NCBI RefSeq assembly: GCF_006345805.1 | Contig: NC_043008.1 | Span: 72,788,001-72,852,000 of the forward strand | Length of the DNA stretch: 64,000 nucleotides | Reading direction: 5' to 3' | Origin: Octopus sinensis | Taxonomy: Eukaryota | Shown here: positions 991 to 32,500 of the stretch, piece after piece | Layout of the letters: each line of letters begins with the position of its first letter | Numbering within the stretch: the first letter of the stretch is position 1 | Notes under the pieces: generated by a model | Seen by the model: the letters and a program-made list of their open reading frames with translations, nothing else | Told to the model about the DNA's origin: nothing | Database searches by the model: none | Translations under genes and position numbers: made by a program

Positions 991-1578
991 GGATATTGAA
1001 TGAAGTATCAATGTCATTTCTCCTCCATCAATGCAGGATAAAATTTACTGTTGCTGTTGTTTGGGAATTGGTTAGAATTGAACCAGTAGACTATTATGAA
1101 AGGTATTCTAGCTATGACCAATCTTATTCTTTATATAGGCATAATCTATATCTAAACAGGTGTCGTGTTCTTCTATGCTAAAACACCTGTTTCTGTCTCT
1201 GTCATACTCTAACCTCTCATCACCTAGCACAAATCTACCTCTCTCAATACTACTCCTATCTCAGTTGAGGGGTCATGCCTTGCAAGTTTCTTGGTGACAT
1301 CACTAGTGTCATGTAGAAAACACCCAGTACACACTGTAAAGTAGTTGCCATTAGGAAGGACATCCAGCTGTAGAAACAGACATGTAAGACTATCCAACCT
1401 TTATCAACATGGAAAGCTGATGTTAAAACATAATAGTGATGATATATCTAGAATTGATATTTTTGCTTCTTTAAGACAGTAGGACATAATTTAAGGGAGA
1501 TTTGACTGCTATTTTTAAAAGATCAAGTGATACATTATTTACATTTAACAGATATTTGTCCCCATCTTGTTTGTTGTT

Positions 1579-1624
1579 AACACAATGTTTCGGCTGATAT
1601 ACCCTCCAGCCTTCATCAGGTGTT
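1579..1624 (-). ncRNA. Minimal type-I hammerhead ribozyme
   Basis: Minus strand: aacac CTGATGA a ggctg-gagggtatat-cagcc GAA ACAT T gtgtt; stem I aacac/gtgtt, stem II ggctg/cagcc. Confidence 0.7.
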
Positions 1625-1690
1625 TGGGGAAATTTCGAACCAGGGTTCTCATTCCTAAGGTATTTTTCGATGCTATTATTATTATTATTA

Positions 1691-1730
<40 letters not shown>

Positions 1731-1796
1731 GGTCACTGCCTGGAATCAAACTCGGAATACCTTAGGAATGAGAGCCCAGATTCAAAATTTCCCCAA

Positions 1797-1843
1797 GACA
1801 CCTGATGAAGGCTGGAAGGGTATATTAGCTGAAACATTGTGTT
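1797..1843 (+). ncRNA. Minimal type-I hammerhead ribozyme (decayed mate)
   Basis: gacac CTGATGA a ggctg...tagct GAA ACAT T gtgtt; stem II carries G-U wobbles. Confidence 0.6.
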
Positions 1844-4659
1844 AACAAACAAGATGAGGACAAATATCCATCAAATGTAAATAATGTAAATAATGTACAT
1901 AATTCCTCATCTCTTAAATATAGAACTGTAGATCAACTGATGTTATGAACTTTCAGAAGAGGAAGAAACAAAAACTAATGCTTTTAAGACAGTTAGGTGA
2001 ACCTAAGTGAAATAAGGCAGTCATAATTAGATTTATGTAGTATGAGAATATATTAAGCTAATGGATAACTAACCACATGGTTACAAGTTCAAGTTTCACT
2101 ACAGCAAATGTGTAAAACAATATAGAACAAGGCACTGAGGTCTGTGTGGGTAAACAAAAACAGACATCTCTCCATACTTCACAGTTGACTAATTACTCTA
2201 TGAAAGGACATCACCCAGCTGTGAAGAACTATTTTCTGGTTGACCAGTTAGAAATCACATCTTGCTGTTTTAAAAAGAGAAAGAAACATAGTTTATTCTT
2301 AAGTAGGCTAGATTTTTAAATAAAGACAGGCTGGCCACAGAACATCTTCTCAGTCAGAAGAGCGGAACAAATAAATCATCTTCAGCATTGCTTGACATAT
2401 AGTTTTCATGCTGGCATGAGTTGGACAGTTTACTGAAGACAGCATCATGCACCAATATCTTCATTAGCTTGCTTTGTATAGTTGGATGCTTTTCATAAAA
2501 CCAACCACTTTAGAGAGTACACTGGGAGCTTTATTTCATGGCTCCAGCTTCATAAATGTGCAAAGTGACCTACATAACCAAAGGAGAACAGATAAGAGAG
2601 AAGCTGATTATTCTATGTGGAGTAATGAGGGAATGGTTAGTGAGAAGGGAGTCTGAGGGAGAGAGTAGAAGATAGGGATTAGTGACAGGGTTCAAAAGAA
2701 TGGAAGGGTAGAGTTAAGAAGGTGATAAAAAGGGTTGTGCATGGGAAAGGGGCTAAGGGTTATTCAAAATTCTAAGGAGCAAGTATGGACAGATGTTAAG
2801 GAAAGGAGACAGGAGGGGAGCAATAGACTTGGGTGGAAGGGAAATTTAGGTGAGTCACTGAAGTAAAGAAAGTCGTGGGTGGTAAGGTATGCAGGTGATT
2901 TACTGAGGGAAAAGGATAAAAAATGACAATAGGGCAGAGCAAAGGACCTGTGGTGTGTGTGTGTGGGGGGGGTGAATAGCTCTGAGACTCCTCTCACCAC
3001 TTTCATTTGTATTACATTTTTGGCAACAACATTTGTTATTTATGAGCTAAGCTAGACATAATTTAAAGTAAATCATTCTAAAATCAGAACTTGAAAAAAT
3101 ATTGCAAGTGTGATGTGCCACAAGCTCAATCAACCAGCATTTAAAAAAATGAAAAAGCAAGGTCTTCACAGTAATATTGAAAGACTGCTTTCTTAATAAA
3201 TGAAGATCATATATATAGATATATGTTCCTATGACATTCTCTTTGGAACATTTACTATAGTGATTCCAGTTGAGGAACAACCCATGATGAACACTACACC
3301 TTTGTTGTGGAATTTTCATGGAAGAATTCAAAGATGGTGTCTTAGAGCTTTTTTTTTTTTTAAGTGTGTTTTACAAGATACTATCTTGGTAGGTAGACAC
3401 AGACCAGTTCATCACATCTCCTTGTGTACTTAGAACATAAGGAGTTAAAGTAAAATACTATAAAACATTTTTACTCACTGCTTTAACAGTTTAACCAGTC
3501 CATCACTCTGGAACAGTTCCTTATTTTATTGACCCTAAAAAGATGAGAAGTAAAGTTGGCCTTGGCAGGATTTGAACTCAGAACAATAATAGGCAGAACA
3601 GACCCTGCAAGGCAAATTTGTGTGACACTTATAATTCTGCCAATTTACTACTTACATTTCCATTACATAGGACCAATATGAATGAAGCGTCTTTAGCAAT
3701 ATCTGTCTTAGCTAAAACTGCATCTGTGCAGTTTTAGAAACCAAAATGGGTTGGTTGGTTTGATAGGATCCTGTGGGTCCAGAAACTGCATTGTGCTCCA
3801 ATGTCTGCTTTGGTTAAGTTGGTGTAGTTGGATGCCCTTCCTAATGTGAACCAATTTACATTATGTGCTTGGTACTTTTCACATAGCACCAGCACCAGTG
3901 AGGTGGCTAATCAGTTTAGGGGCCTAAAAAACCAGAGAAGAGGAGCTTAAAGCTAGAAAATGAGGGTTAAGGTATGAAATGTGGGGACAGGCAGAGTGGA
4001 TTTGAGTTGTAGGGAAGATACTTGGTCACACCCATTTAGTTAGAAGTGAATTAGTAGTAGCTATAAAGAGATAAATAATGGTAAGGAGGTGTCCAGATGG
4101 CAACTCAAGGTACAAGCTGAACTGAAATGAGTGGGTACAGAGAAACTTGGAGTGGGTGGGAGTTTGCGAGAGTGAAGGAAGAAACTAATGGTTGAAGTAT
4201 ATTTGAAATAAATGTGATGAAACTATGAAATAAATGTATTTTTAGTAATGCGATCCCAATATATGTTGTATTGAAGTATGAGTTAGTTGGCGTCAGTCTT
4301 GGATATCAATACCTGAAATAAGGAGGGAGAGTTGAGTAGCAGAATGAATATCTAAGGAACATTTAGTTCCAGATGTTCAGATTATACTGGAGTGAACTTT
4401 GTCTTTTATTCTGTCATCTTGGATTTGGAAATTGATATCACTAACTTATGATTTTGAGACAATGACAAGAATGAGCTTAGAAGTCATCATTGTGGAAAGA
4501 CAGATAAAACTGACTATCATGTGAGGGTTCATACATGAAAAAGAGAAAGGTGAGATATATGAATGGTAATGAGGGTTATATTAGTAAAGGAATGCCATAT
4601 GATAGGTGAATATAGGGGTCAGTGATGAAGTCATTGGGTAGTTTTTTGCTTGTGTAGTG

Positions 4660-7619: not shown

Positions 7620-10600
7620 AATCTGCCCAACTGAAGCAATTATGGATAACTTTCACCACTCACCCATTACCAACTTCCCCTACCTCGACATTCCTGTTAA
7701 ATGTACGTGGCATCAACCCATCAATTATTGCCCAAAAATGGAAGATCCCATATATAGAGAGTTGGCTTGCCGAAATGGCACATTGCTTCCCTTTCTTTAT
7801 CCTTACCGAGACTCACCTGAACAACACCCATATGGACGCAGAGGTGAAAATAAAAGATTTCACCATTGTTCGTGCGGATCGCACAGACCGAAATAAGGGA
7901 GGGACAGCCATCTTTATCCATGACTCCTTTTCACTTGATGCCAAGGACACATTTTCCAATGGCTACTGTGAATCGGTATCAGTATACAACAAAGCCAAGG
8001 ACATAACCATTGTTGGTCTTTACAGGCCTCCCAGGCACCTCTAAAGTACTTTGAAGAGTGCCTTAGCAAAGTCAAGTCCTTCCTTCGGAAGTACCACTCC
8101 GGAAACATAATAGTGATGGGTGATTTTAACCTCCCTCATGTGAACTGGCCCACAAATACTCCGAAGTTGGGCAAGTGCTCTACATCAGATAGGGCAGCAG
8201 CAGAACTGCTCTTTTAATCTGATGGATGAGTATTTCCTGACTCAGCTAGTGCTTGAACCAACGAGACAGAATAAAACGATCTTGGATCTGGTACTGACCA
8301 ATCACTCTAGCTACGTTCACAGCATTTCAGTCGAAAAAACTCTCCTCTCAGACCACGACATGGTACTCTGCAATCTTAATTCCCGACGTATAAAAACCAA
8401 ACCAGCCAATCCCACTCCATGGCACCCATTTGACAACATAAATTTCCACAAAGCGGACTGGGGAACAATCAGAAAGGATCTGTCTTCCATCGACTGGTCT
8501 TTTACTCTCAATTCCCCTCATATTGAGACCGCGTGGCAGCACTTTGAAACCATTGTCACCGACACATGCTCTAAACACGCTCCCAAGAAATCTACTAACA
8601 CAAACAGAAACCGGCTCCCTAAAAGAAAAAAACACTCATCAGGCGCATCAAAAGACTCAACAAAAAAATCAACCAATTAAAATATTCCCACACGCAACAT
8701 CCACATTCAACAATAATGAAAAGACTAGAGCTGGAAAAACTTCATCTGCAGACTAACATGAAAACCTCCATTGAAAATCAAAGAGCTGTGGAGGAACAAT
8801 GGGTAATCAAAAACATCAAACAACCCAAAAGTGTTCTATTCTTATGCAAATAAGCATAGAACCACTGTCTCACCTATTGGGCCATTGATTGATGAAAACG
8901 GCATTCCCAACACGATGCTAAAGAAATGGCAGAAATACTGCAGAAACAATATTGCTCTGTCTTCAGTGTTCCCACTGATATTATTGTGAGGGACGAACGA
9001 AGCTGACTCCCAACACAAAATCGCAGACATAACCTTCACTGCACCGACATCGTAGCAGCAATAAATGAGGTCAAACATTACTCCGCTGTAGGCCCTGATA
9101 GATTTCCCGCCAGTCTCCTGAAGGAATGTAGATATCAACTTGCAGTCCCTCTGATCAACCTCTGGAGAAAACTCGTTAGACGCAGGTTATATACCGAAAA
9201 AGTTTCTATCCCAGTCGGTCATCCCGGTTTTCAAACAGGGAAACAGATCCCTCGCAGTCAACTATCGCCCAATCTCACTCACCTCCCACATCATTAAAGT
9301 GTTTGAAAGAGTGTTAAGATCAAGGATAGCTGACTTCCTGGAGACCCACAAACTCCTAAATTCAAATCAACATGGCTTTCGCTGTGGCAGGGACTGTCTA
9401 ACACAGCTCTTACACCACATTGAAGATGTACTCAAAGCCTTGGGAACAGGTTCGAACTCTGACGTCATATACCTTGACTTCAGTAAAGCGTTCGACAGGG
9501 TAGACCATAACATCCTACTCTCAAAATTGGCAAATGTTGGAATCCGTGGAAAAGTTCTACACTGGATTCAGTATTTCCTAGAGAATAGAACACAACATGT
9601 TGTAGTTGATGGAGTCCACTCAAACCCAGCAAAAGTCACCAGCGGTGTTCCCCAGGGAACTGTTTTGGGTCCGCTACTCTTCATAATTTATGTAAACGAC
9701 CTTTCCAGTGTCGTACATCACTGCAAAGTGAAAATATTCGCTGATGACACTAAGCTCCAGCAAATCGTCAATGAAGAAGCAGACCGAACTCAACTCCAGT
9801 CTGACCTATATGCTGTGAGTCAATGGGCAGACAGAAACAAAATGCAACTGAATGAGGGAAAATTTGAGCTGATGCATTTTGGAAGAAATTCCTCACTAAA
9901 GCAACCATACTCTCTTCCTTCAGGAGAACCGCTCACAGCCTCTAACAATATCAGAGACTGGGTGTAATTGTTGATGACGATCTCAGTTGGAGCGCACACA
10001 TCAATAAGAAGGTCGATACAGCTCGTAGGATGAGTTCCTGGATCTTAAGAACTTTCCGGTCCAGAGAACAAGGTGTCATCATACCACTTTTTTCATCCTT
10101 TGTACGGCCACACCTTGAATACTGCTGCCCACTGTGGTCTCCTCACACAAGACAAAACATCTCCAGAATTGAGTCACCCCAGAGGGCTCTCACTAAACAA
10201 ATTGAAGGCATGGCTGCTCTCGACTATTGGGATCGCCTTAAAGCCTTGAAACTTTACTCCCTCCAGCGTCGCCGTGAGCGGTACATCATTTGTACGATGT
10301 GGAAAATATACCGCCAACTTTGCCCAAACGACCTAAACATTAGCTTCAAGGTTCATCCGAGACTTGGACCACGGGCTATACGTCCCCTGCCAAATTCAAG
10401 ATCACAACATACATGTACACTGCAACATAATTTCTTTTCCTCAACAGGCCCTGCCCTATTTAACATTGTCCCGAGGGAGATCAAAGAGGAAAAGGATCCC
10501 ATCAACTTCAAACAGAGTCTGGATAGATTCCTTCAAAGAATACCAGACAAGCCACCCATAATTGGATACAACTCACCCAACAAGAACTCACTACTTGAAC

Positions 10601-10753
10601 AAAACTGGATACAACTCACCCAACAAGAACTCACTACTTGAACAAAACTTGACTTAAACAGGATTCGAATAATCCTATCAGGTGGTGCTATTAAGTTAGA
10701 CATGGCCTGGACCAATCTCTGGTCGAAACATATCTAAGTTTTATCTAAGTTTT
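7620..10753 (+). mobile_element. CR1-group LINE, ORF2 (APE endonuclease + reverse transcriptase), frameshifted
   Basis: EN motifs LTETHL, RADR..GGTAIFI, VMGDFNLP, ILDLVLTN, SDHDMV; RT motifs QHGFR, YLDFSKAFD, SGVPQGTVLGPLLF, FADDTK; C-terminal RPHLEYCCPLWSP; 3' stem-loop gacca/tggtc and tandem tatctaagttt tail. Split over several ORFs (7775, 8222, 9299, 10030). 5' boundary approximate. Confidence 0.93.
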
Positions 10754-19818: not shown

Positions 19819-20262
19819 CACATATATATATATACACACAATCCAATACAGGCCCATTCCCTAATTTTAATTTTATTATCTTCATTTATTACTTTTGTTA
19901 TCTTTGATCGCTAGAGCTAAGGATCCTGGCGATGGCAGCATGTCCAAATTGTCTGTCTACTAGAAGGCAAGTGCTCGTTCCCGCACGCACACTCATTAGC
20001 ACGTACATACACCCATTTGTACACTCATACACATACACGTACGCACGCGTTATATTCATACATACAAACATCTACATACGTTCACGTATATACACATACG
20101 TACTCGTACCTACAGATTCATGTCTACACTTTAGGAGGCTAGTCTATATATATACACCAATAAATATACATATATATATACATATACATACATATATATA
20201 TATACACATATACACATACACACACACACGCACATATATATACACCTACATACAGATACATA

Positions 20263-20296
<34 letters not shown>

Positions 20297-20810
20297 CACA
20301 CATCCATGTACATATATATATATATATATATACATACATATATATATATATATACATACATACATACACATACATATACATACATACATACACACACACC
20401 CATATATATACACACACATACATACACATATATATACATACACAAACATATATACACACATATATATACATATACATATATACACACATACATACACACA
20501 CCTACATACATATACACACAAACACATACATACGTAAACATACATACATACATCCATACATCCATACTTACATGCACTTATACGCATACACACACCCCCA
20601 TCTATAATATATATATATATATATATATATTATATACACACTCACACATACTACATACTCATACACGCGCACATACTTACATATACATATATGCACACAC
20701 TTCCACACATATATACATACACATATACATGCAACATACATATATGCATACATACACACACCGCACTCATATATACATATATATATACACACATACACAT
20801 ACATACATAT

Positions 20811-20856
<46 letters not shown>

Positions 20857-20958
20857 CACATATACACATACACACATATACATACATATACACATACATA
20901 TATATACACATATACACATACACATACATGCACACATACACACACATACACATACACC

Positions 20959-21002
<44 letters not shown>

Positions 21003-21086
21003 TACACACACATACACATATACACATATACACTTGAATGAAACAGTACTAGTCCTGTAGAAGCTCCTTCTATATAATAAATTAAT
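19283..21086 (-). mobile_element. PLE-type insert with short inverted terminal arm, in (TA)n
   Basis: 19348-19401 is the exact reverse complement of 21033-21086 (54 bp); tail 19283-19347; interior mostly CA/TA repeat with a unique island at about 19840-20145. Confidence 0.75.
19369..19417 (-). ncRNA. Type-I hammerhead ribozyme with reduced stem II
   Basis: Minus strand: agcttc CTGAAGA tttcttgaat GAAA CAG tactagtc CTG TA gaagct; stem I agcttc/gaagct, stem III ACAG/CTGT, predicted GUA site at 19375. Confidence 0.75.
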
Positions 21087-21149
21087 ATATATATATATTG
21101 TTATATATATGTATATATATATATATGTATATACATATATATATATATG

Positions 21150-21192
<43 letters not shown>

Positions 21193-21214
21193 ACATATAT
21201 ATATAAACAATATC

Positions 21215-21880
21215 TAATCATCATCATCATCGTTTAATGTCCGCTTTCCATGCTAGCATGGGTTGGACGATTTGACTGAGGACTGGCAAACCAGATGGCT
21301 GCACCAGGCTCCAATCTTGATCTGGCAGAGTTTCTACAGCTGGATGCCCTTCCTCACGCCAACCACTCCGAGACTGTAGTGGGAGCTTTTATGTGCCACC
21401 GGCACGAGGGCCAGTCAGGCGGTACTGGCAACGGCCCTGAGAAAATAGTGTTTTTTTATGTGTCACCTGCACACCGGCACAAGTGCCAGTAAGGCGACAC
21501 TGGTAACGATCACACTTGAATGGTGCTTTTTACATGCTACCGGTATGAACACCAGTTAGCTGCTCTGGCAATGATCATGCTCGGATGGTGCTCTTAGTGC
21601 TCTACTAGCACAGATGCCAGTCATTGAATTTGATTTCGATTTTGATTTCACTTGCCTCAACAGGTCTTTGCAGGCAGTGTCCAATGAAGGGAAGGTACAC
21701 ATAAGTGGGCTGGTTACACTCCTGGCATAGGCCACAAGGTCTCACTTGGCTTGCCAGGTCTTCTCAAGCCAACATATTTCCAAAAGTCTCAGTCACTGGT
21801 CATTGCCTCGGTGAGGCCTAATGTTCAAAGGTCGTGCTTCATCACTTCATCCCAGGTCTTCCTGGGTCTACCTCTTCCAT
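21215..21880 (-). mobile_element. RTE-3'-end-related interspersed repeat with (GAT)n tail
   Basis: catcatcatcgtttaatgtccgctttccatgctagcatggg and ctggatgcccttcct..gccaaccact recur at about 1270-1430, 2380-2560, 3770-3910, 17320-17540, 40630-40830, 42090-42250. Confidence 0.65.
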
Positions 21881-21892
21881 ATATCCAGCGAA

Positions 21893-22160
21893 GGTGCATG
21901 GCTCAGTGGTTAGAGCATCGAGCTTATGACCATGAGGTTGTGAGTTCAAATCCTGGCCTGAGCTGTATGTTGTGTTCTTGAGCAAGACACTTTATTTCAC
22001 GTTGCTCAAGTTCATTCAGCTGTAGAAATGAATTGTGACATCACTGATGCAAAGCTGTATTGCCCTTTGTGTTTCCCTTGGATGACATCGGTGGCATGGA
22101 GAGGGGAGGCTGGTATGCATGGGTGACTGCTGGTCTTCCATAAACAACCTTGCCTGGACT
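21893..22160 (+). mobile_element. tRNA-derived SINE, family C
   Basis: A box tggctcagtgg and B box gagttcaaatcc. Confidence 0.85.
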
Positions 22161-22499
22161 ATGTTGATGCTATTTGGCTCTGATTAAAGCGATCCATGAT
22201 AAAAATGTCCTTTGTTGTTTTAAAGGTGGCAGATTGTAATTTTAAAGAAATTTGATTGCTATTTCTAATATGTTGAGTACTTACATAGCCACTTCACTCA
22301 ATTCTTTGTTGTTGTTGCTTTTTTGTTACTTAGATATATAAAAGTGCAGAGTAATGGCAGTGTTCCATAATAAAATATATACATAATAAGGTGCATACAT
22401 ACTGTTTTTAACACAGTTTTTGTTATTAAGAACTAAAAAAAAATAATCTTAGCTCTGAGTATGAAGAACTGCATAAGATTGATAATGACTGCAGCAGCC

Positions 22500-23090
22500 T
22501 TGCTGGTAGAAATAGTAGTTTACACACTTCGTCTTTTAAACTCTATATGACTACATATGTAACAAAGTACACTCAGTTACACCTGTGCTCTTGGCCACAT
22601 TGAGCAGCAAACTGACACACAGGTTTCTGTGGCTGTGGTTTTCTCAACACCTGGACATGTGAGCTTAGCTTCTCTCATGTTGGTTATGGCCTCCTCTTTC
22701 TTTTTCACTGCAGTGGTGTCCATCTGAAAGTTATTTTTGTATGGCATACTCCTGGCAGGTGGAATATGTAACCAGTTAGTTTTAATCTTTATTCTATGAT
22801 GGTCTAGCTAAGTTGTCTTATGTTGATTCTTTTGAGTATGTCTTTATTGGTTACCTAGTCTTGCCAGTATGTTCTCAGAATCCTTTCCAAGAATCTTTGG
22901 TGGAAGGTATTTAGTTTTCTATTAATTTTCACAGTGCTCTTTCATATCTTACTGACATAGAGAACTATCAGAAGAACTATGTCATTATAGAGACAGATTT
23001 TTGTGTGTAAGCTGATGTTGTTGGAGGACCAGATAGAATGCATTCTATGGAATATAGTTGCAGCTCTGCCAATTCCATGGTTGACATAAC
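22500..23090 (-). mobile_element. Degenerate RTE LINE 3' fragment
   Basis: Minus-strand translation gives KICLYNDIV and LNTFHQRFLERILRTYWQD*VTNKDIL, typical of the RTE ORF C-terminal region. Confidence 0.65.
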
Positions 23091-24071
23091 AAAACACACT
23101 AATTATGTGTTTTAATTACTTTTGGAATCATTCAAAAATTTAGAGATTATATTTGCAGTTCTCTAGAAAAGCATGTCCAGGCTATTTGTTCTTTGATAAC
23201 CTAGGGAATAATTACTTTGCTTGGAAACAGCTAATGATAGTTGGCATCAGGAAAGGCATTCAGCCATAGAGTATTCTACCTCAACAAAATCTTGTTTCAC
23301 CTGCACAAGGTTTGGACCATAGATGCTCCAATTAAGGTATATTGATGGTGATGAACCAAATTTTTCATCGTAAATCTGAAGTTTGGAAGGTAACAAAAGG
23401 GTTCTCACATAAATATATAATGGTAAGGCTTCATGTCAAAAATAACACTTTTCAACAGGATGTTTTGAATGGAAACTAAAAATGTGTTGGTCTGTGGAAA
23501 GTTAATATAAAACAGACTATAGTCTTAAAACACATAAGCCTGAAATATCTTAATCTGATTGCAATCAAATAATCGTTGTTATTTCAGTTTGATGAAAATA
23601 CATTTAAAACTGACACATTTAATATAAAAGAATTAAATAAAAAAAGTTATGGAAATAGTGAATTGCAAACCTACTTATAGAAATATATTTATCACTGTTT
23701 CAGTTTAATGTTTAGGTGTTTATTTAATATTTAATTAATGTATGATAGCAAACAATATTTCATTCTTTTTAACTTTGTCATATATATTCATATATGTGGG
23801 TGTGTGTGTAAATACACATGCACACATGCATATTCTATATATATGTGTGTGCATATATATATACATATCTATCTATCTATATATATGTATATATATATAT
23901 ATGTATGTATGTATGTGTGTGTGCATATATATATATAGATAGATAGATAGATATACACATATATGTATGTGTATATATATTTATAGTGCTATCTTCATTC
24001 AAATAGGTTCAGTTGAACTGGGCTACCAGATTTAGTCTTCAATACATGACACAGGTGCAGTTTTATAAGTG

Positions 24072-24104
<33 letters not shown>

Positions 24105-24839
24105 GCATGTGTATATGTGTGGGGGTGAATATATATATATGTATGTGTGTGTGTAACATAGTTTATTTGTCTACATCTTGGTTTTTTGTCACTCTTTTGA
24201 TGGTAGCATGGGTTAGACAAATATATTATCAGGGCATTATTTTACAGATGGATACCATTTTTGCCACCAACAGCTTGCATTTCTTTTTTTTTTTTTTTAG
24301 AGCAAGAAATATTCACACATTTTCACTTGAAGATTACAATTTTACAGACTGCAAACTAAACACAAACAAACACACACACACAGAATGAGTGATAAAAGAA
24401 TACTCAGGGTTCTCAGCTTGATAGTGGACAGAGGTATGTTGGTTGTCCATGGTTCAGATATCAGGACAAGCTTAAGAGTATCCTCTCAGCAGTCAATATA
24501 TCTCACAACACCATTGAGCAAACAGCCTCGGGATGAACAAAATGGGGATCATCGTGTCAAAATTCTAAAAGAGACTTTGTTTCAATCAACATTAACTGGC
24601 TAAGTGCTGCAGGGCAAAGGAGAAAAGCAGCTGCAAATATACTGCCTGCACCACCTGGACTGACCCATAATCCACATACTTGTAACATCTGCAAGCTAAA
24701 TTGCAAATCGTTGGTGGGACTCAAATGCCACATTCGACATATGCAATATGACTGACAAAGGAAGTGTAGGTTGTTAGATCCTCATATGTTGAAACTGGTG
24801 AGAGAGTTTATCATCTAGTATATATAAGCTGCAGTTGCT

Positions 24840-25175
24840 GAGACCCCCTTTGGTCATGACTAACCATGGGATTGCACCTAAAAAGTTACCCTCCCAGGCA
24901 GAAGTCTGGGCAAGGTTGTTTATGGAAGACCAGCAGTCACCCATGCATACCAGCCTCTCCTCTCCACACCACCAGTATTAACCAAGGGAAAGGCAACGGC
25001 CGATACAGCTTGGCACCTGTGATGTCGCAACTCATTTCTACAGCTGAATGAACTGGAGCAACATGAAATAAAGTGTCTTGCTCAAGAACACAACACACAA
25101 TCTGGTTTGGGATTCAAACTCCCAACCTCACGATTGTAAGCTCGATGCTCTAACCACTGAGCCATGCACCTTCAC
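24840..25175 (-). mobile_element. tRNA-derived SINE, family C
   Basis: Reverse complement of the 21893 copy. Confidence 0.85.
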
Positions 25176-25197
25176 ATAAGTTGTGTGTGTATAATGA

Positions 25198-25330
25198 CTA
25201 AGACATACATTTCCACAATTCTCAACCGATTTTCACCAAACTTTGCACACCATTACTTATGTCCCAATGATGGTCATGCATTATAACATTTTGCCCAGAG
25301 CTCCTGCGTAATTGGACATAAATAGACAGA
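25198..25330 (+). mobile_element. Non-autonomous Helitron/Helentron-like remnant
   Basis: Core-like motif caaccgattttcaccaaactttg following a TG tract. Confidence 0.4.
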
Positions 25331-25623
25331 TTTTTTATGAAGGGTCTTCCATACTTTTTAAATCTCTTTATAAAAGTGAAAGGATTTTGTCTATGTATTT
25401 CCGTTGTCCACCTACAACAGTGATTCAGTTGACTAGGAACACTGTATGCAATGAACATCCAATGCCAAATTATCTTAATCTACATAATTAAACTGTAGTA
25501 AACTTTGGCAAGCTTACCTTTATCTATTCTGAGTTACTTGAAAGGTGATGATCCCTTCCCTCTCTTCCATTTGTTGATACTGTACTTTCACTTTAAGAAT
25601 GCTTATTTACCTGTCCATTATAA

Positions 25624-25914
25624 CAGTGCTTTTCAAACTATCTGATGTGGCATACTGGCAGTTTTTTCTTTCCAATATGACAGGTACCAGTAATATTTCT
25701 TAGTAATATTAATTTCTACCAGAAACAATATATATAATGAATATAGTAAAAGGTAACAATTTCTTTTAACTTATATTTATTTTGTAAACAAATAATACAA
25801 TATTTTATAAGCATTTTATAGTGTTTCTTTCTTTTCTGGAAAATCATCTCGTACCATCAGCTAATGGCTCGCGGACTGGCACCGGTCCGTGAACCACCAC
25901 TCTGAGTAACACTG
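25624..25914 (+). mobile_element. Non-autonomous hAT (Charlie-like) MITE
   Basis: CAGTG...CACTG termini; 8-bp TSD cattataa/cattatgt (6 of 8). Confidence 0.8.
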
Positions 25915-26699
25915 CATTATGTTATTTTGACTGTTGTCCATTGTTTCCAACATGCTTTAGCATTATCATTCTAGCCCTTTTTAAACACTCACATACGATT
26001 CATTCCAAAGAATCAAACTTTAAATAAGAGTTTTGTTTCCAAAAAGTTCCATACCAATTTAACTTTATGTGGCATTTACTGTTAGTTTATGCACAGGCTA
26101 TGTGGGAAGGCAGAATAAAGGGGCTTTGGTTAGCTTATTTGTCTGAAAAAATAGCTCCCTTTGCTGTTGTATAAAATAAACTTGCAGAGGAGAAGTTTCA
26201 ACATCTTTCTTCAATTTCCTTACATCATTTATGTGGCTGTTTCTGACAAGAAATTTCGCTTTCATGTAAAACAACTATATTTTGTAGCCATTATCCATAA
26301 TTTACTCCCAAAGCACTTTAGTAGCTCTATTTTGCATCACTTGCAAACTTATATGCTCTATGATCATTGAAGTGCAATGACCTTCACAATAACCAGCTTT
26401 CAATTTCATTTTCCGTTCCTAGTTTAATCAGAAACATAGATTGCTGTGTTACTCATAAACCTTCTCAGTAGTAAAGTTATTTGGTGAAAAAAATACCACT
26501 TAAACAGTTCAAAGGACAGGTGTGTTTGCTAGTATATATATAAACTAAGTTTCTTTAACTTATATGTACACATTGATATATATAAATTTAAATACATTCT
26601 GTTCATAAAATGAAGTACTTTTTGTATGCTACCTCAGATTTCAGGTATGAACAGCTTTACCTCCAACTCGATTTCATTCAAGTAAACATTGGGCCGATT

Positions 26700-28800
26700 G
26701 GTTATTTCCATTGTTTTTTTTTTATAAATACTATCGTTTGTTGTTGCTCCTTTAGTGTGGAATAGGTATCGTCTCATGCTGTTAAGATTGTTGGTTTATT
26801 CATGGTGTATTGTTATTTTACTTGTTTGAAGAGCATCAGTTGTAGTTTTCCATTTGTCATTTCCTAATTCCTTGTGCTGTATTTTCATTAGTCACCTTTC
26901 ATATTGTTGATGTTCTTCATGCTTTCCTCTTTCTTATTTTGATAAATCCTGACTCAGTTGAGTGTGGGGTTTATTTCTGATTTTCTGTTGCTCAAGTTTC
27001 ACTTCTTCATAAATTATATAATTATATCCGTTAAAATTATATATTTATTTTTATGAAGCTTTTACTTATTTTTAACTGCAGTCCATCAGTTGCTAGTGAA
27101 GGTATTTCTGGGTAACTAATTGTTGCACTCTCCACTTCAATTGATATTTATTTTCTCTAGGGTTTTCTGATATCATTTTCAAGTGTGGTATTTGTTGGAC
27201 TTTTCTTGCAATACCATTGCCTGTTAGATGACTTCTTTCAGTTTTCATACTCTGAGTAAGGCATTAATCTGCTACAGTTGTTCCTGAGTTTAGTCTTTGA
27301 CTTTTTATTTCTAGATATATGGCTTATAATTTAGATTATATATTTCATTTTCTAAGAAAATGTAACTGATTTCTGTTCTAAAATTGAGATATGCATGATT
27401 AGTTGAGAAATGTTTGAAGTTTAATGTTAAGATGTTATTTACCTCACCTCAACACAGCCCTGTTTTCCTTCCATCATATTCCTGTTCCTTCTACAATACC
27501 ACCTATTCTGGTCCTTCTGATGTCATTGTTCTTTCCATCTCTTCTCCTTAGTCACCTGGGCAAATGTACATGTTCTACTTTATTGAATACATTTTGTACC
27601 TACATTTATTCTCCTATAACTACAGTTCTTATAACCATTTTTGGCCTCACTATGCACATAGTTCTCTTTTTAGATTTACATTTACCCTGTACAAGGTATT
27701 TCTCCAACTATCGTACACACTACAAAATGTTAGCCTAGTAAGGAGAGATGGTGTAGGGATATGAGGCCTTGTTATTTGTGTCTCACCAAAAGCTGATCAA
27801 CATCTTTCATGTTGTGGTACATGAGAAATTGCATCTGATGCACCCTGAAAAGTGTTCAGCATATAGCCAGTGGTATCAAGAATGGCATCCAGTGATAGTA
27901 ACCAAGCCAAATGTTCCATGTAAGCATATTTCTGCTCTGTTACGATATCCCAACCTTATTGTTCAGATGATGAGTTGCTGTGAAACAGAGGGACATTCTT
28001 ATGGTTGCTGACTGTCTGCCATCTCATTGTGAAGACCAATACTTTTACTAGAGGTGAACTTTTGGTTGATGGATAGAAGCTTGCAATGGAAAATTGTGTA
28101 AATTTATATGACTTTTTAGTCTGCAAATTTTTGTATCAGTCAAATGACAGATATGTTCCTGGTTCATTGTTTTAAATTGGTCATTTATATGAATTTAGAG
28201 CTGATATCTGCTAAAATTTTCTTGCCCAATATATCTAATTTGCTTGTCACTGAATTAATTACTTTGCATTTTGGGGATTTGCTAACAAGTTGGACTTGTG
28301 GTCTCTCAGTGTGATGTATGGTTGCCATGTTGCTGTATTTCTGTAATGTCAGCTTTTGTAAACTTTTAGCTAGTTTTTGTGTTTAAGTTAATTATATTGT
28401 ATCTGATGGGGCTTAGGTTTTGTTTAGATGTCTTGGCTATGATAAATGGAAAATTGTTTCATGAATGTCTTTTGTTTTTAGCACACAATTTTTTTTATTT
28501 GCTTTGTCTGTGAATATGGAAATTTTTCAAGACATGAAATGATATGTAAAGTGAACGTTTGTTTTCTAATCTCTTCCTAGAAGTTTTAAATCATATATTT
28601 TAATCTATAATATCTACTATAAATTATTGAAAGCCTTCAAGTTATAGTGGACAATTGCTGGTGTTAGATCCAAATCTTTCTTGGATGAATGTGTCTGATT
28701 TGCATATTTCATAGTGTCACCCTTTCTATCACATGCAATTGCCTGCACCTTTAATATCTTTGACCTAGGTACTTCAAGTATTGCTTTCATATTAACATAC
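26700..28800 (-). mobile_element. Highly decayed LINE, possibly R4/Dong-like
   Basis: T-rich plus strand; minus-strand remnants such as VEHVHLPR near 27550-27580. Many stops; boundaries approximate. Confidence 0.4.
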
Positions 28801-29013
28801 TCTTTTACTCTTTTACTCTTTTACTTGTTTCAGTCATTTGACTGCGGCCATGCTGGAGCATCGCCTTTAATCGGGACTTATTCTTTTGTAAGCCCAGGAC
28901 TTATTCTATCGGTATCTTTTACCGAACCGCTAAGTAACGGGGATATAAACACACCAGCATCGGTTGTCAAGCAATGCTAGGGGACAAATACAGACACACA
29001 AACACACATACGC

Positions 29014-29044
<31 letters not shown>

Positions 29045-29205
29045 TACGACGGGCTTCTTTCAGTTTCCATCTACCAAATCCACTCACAAGGCTTTGGTCG
29101 GCCCGAGGCTATAGTAGAAGACACTTGCCCAAGGTGCTACGCAGTGGGACTGAACCCGGAGCCATGTGGCTGGTAGACAAGCTACTTACCACACAGCCAC
29201 TCCTG
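28799..29205 (-). mobile_element. SINE family A
   Basis: Reverse complement of the 47260 copy. Confidence 0.9.
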
Positions 29206-29338
29206 TTAAATCACTAAGAGACTGTCATTCTACAGTAGTTTTCATGATAGTACTCAACCTATACATTCAAATGTTCCAGTTAGTTAACAAAAGAGGAAGA
29301 TAGTACTTATTATGCTACCGAGTGTATTGTATATTTAA

Positions 29339-29563
29339 CCCTTTCATGTTCAGATTTTTTTGGGGGGCCAAATATAATGCTTATTTATTCAAAGTGTTTT
29401 GAGTTAATCATGCATTATCTTGTAGCTTCAAGATTTCAATGATGTGTTTGTATACTTTTAGTATGACATTATAGGGTAACTCTGAGAGGTTGGATGTGGT
29501 CAGTTTGAACATAAAACAGATAGAATATTTGGGCTGGACATGGCTGGATTAAATGCTAAAGGG
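29339..29563. mobile_element. piggyBac-type MITE
   Basis: TTAA|CCCTTT...AAAGGG|TTAA termini with TTAA TSD. Confidence 0.75.
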
Positions 29564-32500
29564 TTAAACAAAATTTTTTCATTGTATGACTCAAATTTTA
29601 TGCCGCTTTCAACAAAAACTGTTTTACTTTCTATTTGAGCTCATTTTACAAACATTGGCATGTTTCAGTGGATATTGTCTAATACTTTATAATTATTTTG
29701 CACGTGTTTGTGGGACTGTAGTTTTTGGTTATCATTTTTGAGGGTTTTAGTTATCATTTTTGTGCAATTTTGTAATTTATTTTCTGTTATTGTTTGGCAT
29801 TTTTTATCTCCGATTTTTGTTGTTTTAACTATTTTCGGATTTTTAGGTTTATATCACAGTAAAATGTATGTCGGCTACCCTATTTTCCAGACCTTATATT
29901 CTTGTCCTGTTTTATGTTTACTTATTGATGGACAATTAAATGTATCCTAAAGTTTTCTTGTTTGGCTATAGTGTTTTTGATATCCTTTTTATTTTGCTTT
30001 AGATTAGTTCTTGTTATTCTAAGTGCTTTTATAAATAGCTTATTTGGGCTGCTTCTTGGTTTGTTATATTATTTAATCATACCTCTGCTGAATGTTCAAT
30101 ATGCAAATTAGCCTTGTCATTACATTTGTGTTCTAATTTGTATTTGATTTAAATGTTAATTTGGTCTCAGTTCTCTCTTTCAATGGAAAGATTAGTGAGG
30201 TTTAAACTGTGCAAAGGCAAATAATTTCTTTGCTTTTAATCCTACAAAATTCTGTTTTGGGTGCTTTTGCACCTAGACTCCCATACATATGTTACAAGAA
30301 AATGTAGAGCATATTTCTTGTATAGATATCTACCTATCTTGAAACCTAAAAACTGAAATGCATCTATAAAAGTTAACAGATACAGTTTAGTTAATCTACC
30401 ACATTTGCTGTCATTTTCCAAACAACATAATAAAATAGCTATTAACATGTTATTTAAAAAAATTAATAAATCAGAGAAAACTCTTAAAATTTTGCAATTT
30501 TCATTGAATTCATCTCATTAATATTTATGCTAAACATCGAAAATATAAGTTGTCTGCAAGTGTTCCTCATTATTAATATAAAATATATAATTTGATTAAT
30601 CTAAATATTCCGTTAATTTCAATCTTAAGAAAATGCTGTAATTTTGTCATTTTTTTATATTGTAACTTTTATATTCTTGTTGCTGGTTTTTAGTGAAATA
30701 ATGATAATTGTTATGTTGAGAACTTGATCAGAGGAGATATCATCCAATATCCTCCTCCCTCTCTTCCTCTCCATCTTCTCTGTCTTTGCATGTGCTTGCT
30801 TGAGTGTTTATAGATAGATAGTTAGACTACAGAATATAGAGTTGCAAAAATTTCCAATAGAAGTCTATGGAGTAGTTCCATACCATTTTACATAACAAGT
30901 GTCGCTTAATAGCCTTGGGAAAGTTCTGACATTCACATATGACCGTTTCCCCTTTCCTGATAACAAGGGAAAAATATTGTGTCCTGTTGACATTTCACAG
31001 ATTTATAGCTAATCTGATAATGATAAATGATACAAAGTTGAGTTTACTCACATGAGATGTCAAATATATTTTGAGTTAATATTTTGTGGATATATTGTAG
31101 TTTCTCATGTTTTAAATTTGTTATGGTGTGAAGAAGAAAAGCTGTAGCAGCACAAATGCCAGGCCCTGCAATGATGGCATATACAGACACTTAATGTTTG
31201 ACTAGAATGTGTGAAGATCAAAATGGTACTTTTGGGAACAGCATGATAACAAAGCATTTCATTAGATAAACTATATTTTGTCATACTGTAGAATAATGGG
31301 GTTATATGTTTTACAAAAGTTATTCTCCACAAGTCGTGTGATTGACCTTACAGCAACAAATTTTGTGTTTTCTCAGTGCCTCTCTCTTGAAACCTGTCAA
31401 ACTTTCTGTTAGATCTTAGTACCTTTCGCTTTTCTAGCCAGTCCAAAGAGGAATACTGCCAATAAGTTCTATCCCACTTTTTCTCTTCCTTCCCACCACA
31501 GAGTGAGGGACAGAGTTAGAGTGGGGTATATACTTCTGAGTTCTAGAGAGGATTTAATAGTAGGAAGACAGTAATGGATGAAATAGAGAGCCAGGAGTGG
31601 TGTAAGAGATGTATTTACATATTAAGTGGGTATAAATAAAAGTGGTAAAGAGAGACAATTGTTGAAACCAAAGAAAGAGAGCCCAGCTTTGGTGAAGTAA
31701 GGTTTGTAAGGTTTTGATATATTAGGTAACTAGTTTTTCTTTGAGTACTGTCGACAATGTGCATGAATGGTGCTCTAATATGATATATACAATCAACAAC
31801 AGTTCAGAGATGAAACATTTCCTGGTTCTCAAGAAGAAATCTAGTTTATGTATGCAATACTGGCTACATTTGTGTTGAAATAGTTAACCTAAGCTCCAAC
31901 GCAGACTTGAGCTTGCAGATCTATAATAGAAGTTGTTCCTACTGTGAGTGTCCTGTTTTTCTTTAAACACAGCAGCAAGGTAATTGAAAGTTGTTTGGCA
32001 GTATGTTTTCTCAAGTTGAGCAACCATGGAGATGTCTTTTCATTGGTTCATTGAAATTCATGATGTTTATAGGTCGCATGTTGATTCATCTGTGATTAAT
32101 AAGTATAAGAATCATTGGTATATTTTCTTGACAGTGTCTGTGATTAAATGTTGTTGATACAGATTACATTGCCACATCCTAATTGCTGACTCTCTTTTCA
32201 AGGTCTCTCTTGACAATGCGTGCATGTTATAAGATTATTCTAATGCTAAGATGAGGTTTAAATGCAAGAGAAAGAAGGAAGATAAGTTAGAGGTGACAAC
32301 CAGCAGCAGTTTGTCACATGTTAACAAAGACACTATCAAATGTCAGCTCTTTATCCACCATCATCACCACCACCACCATCTCTAATTTTCAGCTTCATTA
32401 ATTACAACAGGTCAAAGATTAGATGTTAGCAAGGCATTATTAATCACTCATCAAAGATTACTGAAACCATAGCAACACTTGAATGAAATGAAGAACAATG

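Follow-up and report, generated by a model that had tools for sequence, protein, structure and literature searches.

The question raised by this locus is whether a short repeat with a tRNA-like head and a hammerhead ribozyme motif is an independent short interspersed nuclear element (SINE) or a part of something larger. The repeat occupies positions 1520 to 1941 of a stretch of 64,000 nucleotides of the Octopus sinensis genome (NCBI RefSeq assembly GCF_006345805.1, contig NC_043008.1, positions 72,788,001 to 72,852,000, forward strand), here called the window. An earlier note on this DNA had taken it for a non-autonomous retroelement using RNA polymerase III (Pol III) for its transcription and inserted by Penelope machinery. 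The unit is the pseudo-long terminal repeat (pseudo-LTR) of an autonomous Penelope element, not an independent SINE, and the insertion is almost certainly of Penelope origin. The favoured reading as a whole, held as probable rather than firm, is that of a decayed two-armed pseudo-LTR insertion of an autonomous Penelope/Poseidon element, with the tRNA-derived head as its likely promoter and Pol III probably the enzyme.

The parent was traced by reading upstream of the heads in the genome (2.72 Gb). Endonuclease-coding sequence was found upstream of head-anchored copies, and a further walk led to a Penelope reverse transcriptase (RT). The parent element is about 2.8 kb long and has one open reading frame (ORF) whose translation contains an RT plus a GIY-YIG domain at the C-terminus. 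The full-length copy L160 opens at the head and continues with an (AAT)n run, a hammerhead, a tail and the ORF, followed by a second head at the end. In 24 of 27 endonuclease-anchored loci (30 minus three duplicates of one locus) the head lies 3' of the ORF stop, and in 20 of the 21 protein-anchored loci (of 30) in which the ORF end was located it lies 3' of that end. The ORF begins inside the repeat, with its ATG before the hammerhead, and the column majority, built from 27 rows, keeps it open over 372 of 372 codons. A frame of 721 codons is present in the column majority, and the N-terminus of the majority frame aligns to that of an intact relative of 847 residues (P0003). Homologs number 1,665, and those listed carry RT-type Pfam labels (PF00078); a Pfam scan of the parent's frames of 551 and 82 residues gave no match. 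Clusters P0001-P0009 represent Poseidon families at 55-70% protein identity, and a barnacle belongs to one of them. Two Cys residues lie between the GIY-YIG motifs in the translations and a linker zinc finger is absent, which makes this a Penelope/Poseidon element by the criteria of PMC8557442, a placement read from motifs. Direct partial tandem pseudo-LTRs occur in L160, L161, L428 and L433.

Among the best 30 loci of a GIY-YIG family search were other Penelope families, none with the window repeat; when a headless sister was sought in the genome by protein similarity, the best 30 loci contained only the family of the window repeat. A second, younger Penelope family (L037, L038, L047, L052 and many GIY-YIG matches, e.g. 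G000:C6:82399801) has a CX4CxxC linker and is of the Neptune/Nematis type. Several of its matches fall within frames that stay open for about 781 codons, and an identical score is shared by many, which suggests that it spread recently. Its 3' regions contain tandem repeats, in which a strict hammerhead pattern gave no match.

In the window two arms point apart and are bounded by a 12-bp duplication. The parts of this copy are as follows.

1520 to 1531, no strand: left target-site duplication, 12 bp, one mismatch to the right copy (from the sequence and a family test)
1532 to 1758, minus strand: inverted, tail-less pseudo-LTR arm, unit positions about +46 to +232, stopping at the inner of two 3' end points
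1532 to 1652, minus strand: start of the Penelope ORF, ATG at 1650-1652, with a frameshift after about 10 codons in this copy
1579 to 1624, minus strand: minimal type I hammerhead with CUGAUGA core, bulged A, 6-bp helix II and GAAA; C15.2-G16.2 lost
1674 to 1729 (about), minus strand: (AAT)n run, the spacer from head to ORF start, variable in length from copy to copy
1731 to 1758, minus strand: B-box-bearing 3' part of the tRNA-like head, in which T replaces the conserved C56; this copy has no A box
1756 to 1758, no strand: 3-nt microhomology at the junction of the 5' ends of both arms (from the sequence)
1756 to 1929, plus strand: direct pseudo-LTR arm that spans approximately unit positions +104 to +264 and includes the ORF start (ATG 1768-1770), a hammerhead and the tail
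1797 to 1843, plus strand: second minimal type I hammerhead, with one extra nucleotide in loop II and loss of C15.2-G16.2
1898 to 1929, plus strand: 32-nt Penelope tail, in the plus arm only; in full-length copies this is ORF sequence
1930 to 1941, no strand: right target-site duplication (from the sequence)

The features reported by the earlier note are present: the minus-strand B-box-like sequence, (AAT)n run, body and hammerhead, the second, plus-strand hammerhead with its tail, and the 12-bp duplication with one mismatch. Its statement that there is no coding remnant does not hold, as both arms carry the start of the Penelope ORF and their translations align to residues 18-61 of P0003. The head is reduced to 28 nt (+46 to about +73). 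Neither head nor hammerhead was detected in the window by Rfam at the gathering threshold or by ARAGORN with default settings. The flank at the tail-less arm (1500-1531) loosely resembles the tail. It was considered as a decayed second tail and rejected: the likeness is gapped and falls far short of the arm's 93%, and the resembling stretch contains the duplication.

The family is large and not young. An exact word from the head has 1,210 genome matches and an exact 33-nt word from the hammerhead 1,997, with no match for either word reversed; the latter word was absent from 100 shuffles of the window. By a hand estimate from 7,055 exact body 21-mers there are about 20,000-30,000 arms genome-wide. 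Divergence from the column majority is 3.5-8.0% (median 5.5%, 52 copies). Family sequence is present in sequencing runs labelled with five organisms, and contigs of three of them were aligned along it. The loci L130, L131, L132 and L137 represent a single, nearly full-length copy that recurs together with its flanks, at 98-100% identity, on contig C1 and three small contigs; this redundancy is due either to segmental duplication or to redundancy of the assembly.

At the family level the head is a tRNA-derived sequence. The Rfam tRNA model spans it end to end, weakly (13.3 bits, E 5), and relaxed ARAGORN runs called 10 of 200 heads at a 90% threshold and 32 of 200 at 80%. In 168 arms the A box is located at tRNA positions 8-18 and the B box at 53-61. 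The best genomic match is tRNA-Arg(TCT), which agrees in register at 45 of 73 bases (z about 8); it is the closest isotype only within the comparison made, which took in 27 different tRNAs of the genome from six isotypes (Arg, Phe, Ala, Thr, Cys, Lys). Inside the A box, at +6 to +14, the head also contains an ATG, one codon and a stop, upstream of the ORF ATG.

The 5' ends of copies cluster at the head start. Exact CpG-free 21-mers were counted 822 times in the ORF (about -190), 888 times at -33 to -13, 3,847 times in the head, 7,055 times in the body and 6,132 times in the tail. In 92 downstream-anchored arms, 21 of the 35 that reach the head start end there, a rate of 0.29 per 10 nt; elsewhere the rate is 0.036 in the body, 0.098 in the (AAT)n zone, 0.059 within the head and 0.014-0.05 upstream of it. 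Of 92 arms anchored in the head, 64 end within -10 to +12, most often at -7 (17/92). Three of the six full-length copies that reach the head start there, and three run into an upstream copy. The head is very likely the start of the RNA.

Which polymerase made this RNA can be approached through the terminators. A run of four T residues (T4) terminates Pol III. Over 2,788 majority columns the sense strand is devoid of T4 runs, versus 30 A4 and 8 C4 runs, and deeper coverage of the 5' part agrees; shuffling gave a mean of 5.5 T4 runs (P 0.0035) and synonymous shuffling 2.6 (P 0.036). In decayed real copies there are 24 T4 runs in 66,652 nt (0.36 per kb). Relatives with a matching T content, 48 in number, average 3.1 per kb, and 47 of them have a rate above that of the window family. 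Another Penelope family of the same genome and the same base composition has six T4 runs in 1.8 kb. Of 80 related metagenome loci, 75 entered the count once four short matches and an interrupted one had been set aside, and in these T4 runs are enriched, with 584 observed versus 392 expected. In the 44 relatives whose flanks were long enough, the 700 nt behind the ORF contained no relaxed ARAGORN call and no pair of A and B boxes, by a pattern that had been checked on the family's head by eye only. These sequence patterns suggest that Pol III was probably the transcribing enzyme.

Several observations weigh against this assignment. The synonymous test reaches only P 0.036, the chance that none of the 13 TTT runs would extend is 0.021, G4 runs are absent as well, and TT and TTT are also depleted. 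The closest metagenome relative (L332:3501-5406) has no T4 in its 1.9-kb ORF and no tRNA head; its 3' region is T-rich. No intact copy of the ORF was found, the longest natural frame having 551 codons. The three full-length copies that extend upstream imply that read-through RNA also served as template. The commonest 5' end is spanned by a 12-nt palindrome, a possible cause of fold-back (9 of 54 peak ends), and a TATA-like word over the ORF stop (L124:2057-2063), at -34 to -30 from the head and 27 nt before the commonest 5' end, would suit RNA polymerase II (Pol II) as well. In one raw RNA run from a related species, reads fall on both strands, their depth tracks copy number, there is no start or end peak, and reads from the ORF are almost nil, a pattern expected of an old family lying inside host transcripts. 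Among the runs listed as containing family sequence none is recorded as RNA.

The TATA-like word is central to an alternative in which the same Penelope parent was transcribed by Pol II, from this word or from an internal promoter, and the tRNA-like piece was a captured passenger in the 5' leader. The characterised Penelope promoters are indeed internal and overlap an intron; they are LINE-like (LINE, long interspersed nuclear element) or marked by H3K4me3 and have spliceosomal introns (PMC2377424, PMC8557442). The headless L332 is T4-free too, which a Pol II parent would accommodate. Capped RNA is, as is well established, easier to translate. A passenger, however, would hardly keep its A and B boxes in exact register and spacing, nor would the start be expected to coincide with the start of the tRNA; T4 runs are enriched, not depleted, in the 75 relatives, and no spliced joint is among the best-supported RNA joints shown for the one run. 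We regard transcription by Pol II as unlikely. The TATA-like word was seen only in repeats preceded by an ORF end, a restriction that could explain why solo copies are not masters.

A further alternative reads the pile-up of 5' ends as an effect of reverse transcription that marks no promoter, the palindrome folding the cDNA back on a long read-through RNA. The palindrome is centred at -2/-1, the commonest end at -7 is its edge, its 2-nt loop is flipped in some copies, and an inverted head precedes 9 of the 54 peak ends; the other 45, however, have none, many ends lie at +1 to +6 inside the palindrome, and fold-back leaves the A and B boxes and the lack of T4 unexplained, so that this alternative appears improbable. 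The loop (palindrome at head -7 to +5) was found in both orientations in L073, L213, L231 and L232, as expected from hairpin fold-back in second-strand synthesis.

Pol III initiation at the head is the preferred reading, and its parts differ in strength. Transcription by Pol III across a coding ORF as the normal route is possible, and is put forward tentatively. Equally tentative is the complete scenario, in which a Penelope element took up a tRNA that became the promoter of the pseudo-LTR, rid all 2.8 kb of its sense strand of Pol III terminators and multiplied to tens of thousands of copies, the majority of which look like SINEs but derive from the leader of its mRNA.

There remains the relation of the short copies to the coding ones. 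Head-bearing arms numbered 203, of which 149 were short and 54 linked to the ORF, and both groups have the same variants at four diagnostic sites in the same frequencies (Fisher p 0.44, 1, 0.50 and 0.36). The arms sampled were the first matches on one contig or the best BLAST matches and are biased to less diverged copies. In Poseidon_Ac the ORF starts at the hammerhead and the template RNA must reach past the start sites into the ORF (PMC11167929). Because of the shared variants and this template requirement, the short copies are taken as products of the parent's RNA, best read as primed in its first repeat and copied to its 5' end; some may be secondary masters or form a short-only offshoot. 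A separate non-autonomous Pol III SINE with masters of its own, mobilised in trans by Penelope, would agree with the three quarters or so of heads without an upstream ORF and with a SINE-sized unit of head, body and tail without internal T4, but it is highly improbable, since the unit is identical to the parent's repeat, no variant is private to short copies at the four sites, and solo copies lack the ORF sequence into which the Poseidon_Ac template must extend.

Of the SINE features the family has the tRNA-derived head with A and B boxes and the fixed 5' end; it has no master lineage of its own and is not free of coding sequence. The earlier note's classification as a non-autonomous SINE falls accordingly, the unit being the autonomous element's own pseudo-LTR, with the N-terminus of the ORF as its body. 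Its Pol III idea gains from the boxes, the start and the lack of T4, and applies to the protein-coding parent instead of a SINE, the polymerase itself being deduced from such signals. Other points of the note were borne out. The junction of tRNA-derived head and hammerhead is a fixed family feature and no separate SINE insertion; an autonomous Penelope-like element with the same hammerhead and tail, which the note had suggested looking for, exists (e.g. L160), as does the full tRNA head at a fixed 5' end, of which the window copy lacks the A box; and the one-tailed divergent arms and the flanking duplication fit insertion by Penelope machinery.

That insertion has a regular outcome. Exactly one arm has the tail in 75 of 84 divergent pairs, neither arm in 7 and both in 2, one of these being the window copy through over-extension of the alignment. 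Duplications scoring at least 9 surround 44 of 73 one-tailed pairs, versus 0-1 of 72-73 in eight sets with mismatched flanks; three loci (the window copy and two duplicates) were dropped from this comparison. The duplications are 9-21 nt long, mostly 11-15. In 90 anchored loci, arms are mainly single or inverted, with occasional direct pairs. Poseidon_Ac cuts and extends both strands, and its reverse transcription starts at two internal sites whose spacing equals the tail (Frangieh 2024, PMC11167929); the same inverted arm and tail are described in Craig 2021 (PMC8557442). By analogy, the RNA would have begun at the head and run through the ORF, and the Penelope protein would have made a staggered cut of about 12 nt. 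Both DNA ends would have primed reverse transcription, at two internal start sites separated by about 30 nt, as seen for Poseidon_Ac in vitro, giving one cDNA per DNA end and per start site, joined mid-way. Priming in the first repeat would allow copying back only to the 5' end of the RNA and would yield thousands of SINE-like solo repeats. In the window copy both cDNAs presumably ended early and were joined at the 3-nt microhomology, leaving inverted arms with one tail. The two-armed insertions number thousands and support, in vivo, the model in which both DNA ends prime synthesis and two start sites are used.

The hammerhead is of the minimal type I known from Penelope-like elements, for which a CUGANGA plus GAAA core, a bulged base before helix II, G10.1-C11.1, a palindromic 15.2-16.2 pair and a helix I of 4-5 bp are diagnostic; minimal hammerheads of Penelope elements and pairs on opposite strands have been reported (PMC4209133). 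This layout, with varied helix II, was found in 18 of 20 relatives examined. An intact core with the C-G pair is present in 51 of 116 family copies, and both window copies lack 15.2-16.2. Rfam did not detect a hammerhead in the family sequences. Single-strand folds of the window hammerheads are no better than shuffles (z -0.59 and 0.39), as expected because helix III requires a dimer. A read-end peak at the hammerhead was not seen in the one RNA run of the related species, an ordinary cDNA library. The motif would act only as a dimer, and has decayed in the window copy.

Comparison with known systems separates what is shared from what is particular to this family. Like Poseidon_Ac and other Penelope/Poseidon elements it has a single ORF for RT and C-terminal GIY-YIG that starts at a hammerhead within the pseudo-LTR, two 3' end points with a spacing of 30-40 nt, an inverted 5' arm and partial tandems (PMC11167929, PMC8557442). 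Unlike them, its pseudo-LTR opens with a tRNA-derived A/B-box head and (AAT)n, and its sense strand is free of T4. In Penelope and Chlamys-3 the promoter that has been characterised overlaps a spliceosomal intron (PMC8557442), whereas no intron was seen in the window family. The schistosome repeats Sm-alpha and Sj-alpha likewise combine a Pol III-type promoter with a following type I hammerhead, but are non-coding SINE-like tandems with a canonical hammerhead (review PMC6765202), whereas this is a dispersed end repeat of a coding element with a minimal hammerhead overlapping the ORF. The TRIMp3 families Cassandra, Helenus and Ajax also have a small-RNA-derived Pol III promoter in a terminal repeat (Kojima 2024, PMC10886601). 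They are non-autonomous LTR elements of 0.3-1.3 kb, whose autonomous partners must use Pol II according to the same paper; here the promoter-like head belongs to an autonomous Penelope of 2.8 kb. Non-LTR retrozymes are similarly short hammerhead repeats related to Penelope pseudo-LTRs (PMC7229834; bioRxiv 10.64898/2026.07.22.740005), in head-to-tail arrays that give circular RNA, while copies of the window family are mostly single or inverted; a tRNA-derived head is not mentioned in the available portions of these two sources. With tRNA-derived SINEs the short copies share the A/B-box head, the fixed 5' end, the small size and the high copy number. Unlike SINEs, they form no separate lineage, their 3' part is the parent's own repeat and not borrowed, and they end at Penelope start sites without a poly(A) or simple-repeat tail. 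A Penelope with a tRNA-derived pseudo-LTR was not found in the available open full-text literature, including PMC7229834, PMC13282606, PMC6962438 and bioRxiv 10.64898/2026.07.22.740005; supplements, Repbase, Dfam and subscription journals were outside this scope and may list the family.

Elsewhere in the window, two open frames of 270 and 231 codons at 9155-10640 (plus strand) resemble remnants of a LINE reverse transcriptase. Positions 1-480 are a long degenerate (TA)n tract. A decayed piece at about 790-990 resembles another common repeat of the genome.

To our knowledge, Pol III promoters have been thought confined to short, non-coding mobile elements, and the runs of this polymerase have been regarded as too short to sustain an autonomous retrotransposon. 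An element that codes for protein, has a tRNA head where its copies start and lacks terminators runs counter to the Pol II-only view of autonomous elements. It also raises the question of how such an RNA was translated, with a hammerhead lying inside the start of its ORF. If true, the element would be a LINE and a SINE in one, and a model for the origin of Pol III-hammerhead repeats such as Sm-alpha. For repeat annotation it means that a large SINE-looking family can consist of the solo pseudo-LTRs of a Penelope element.

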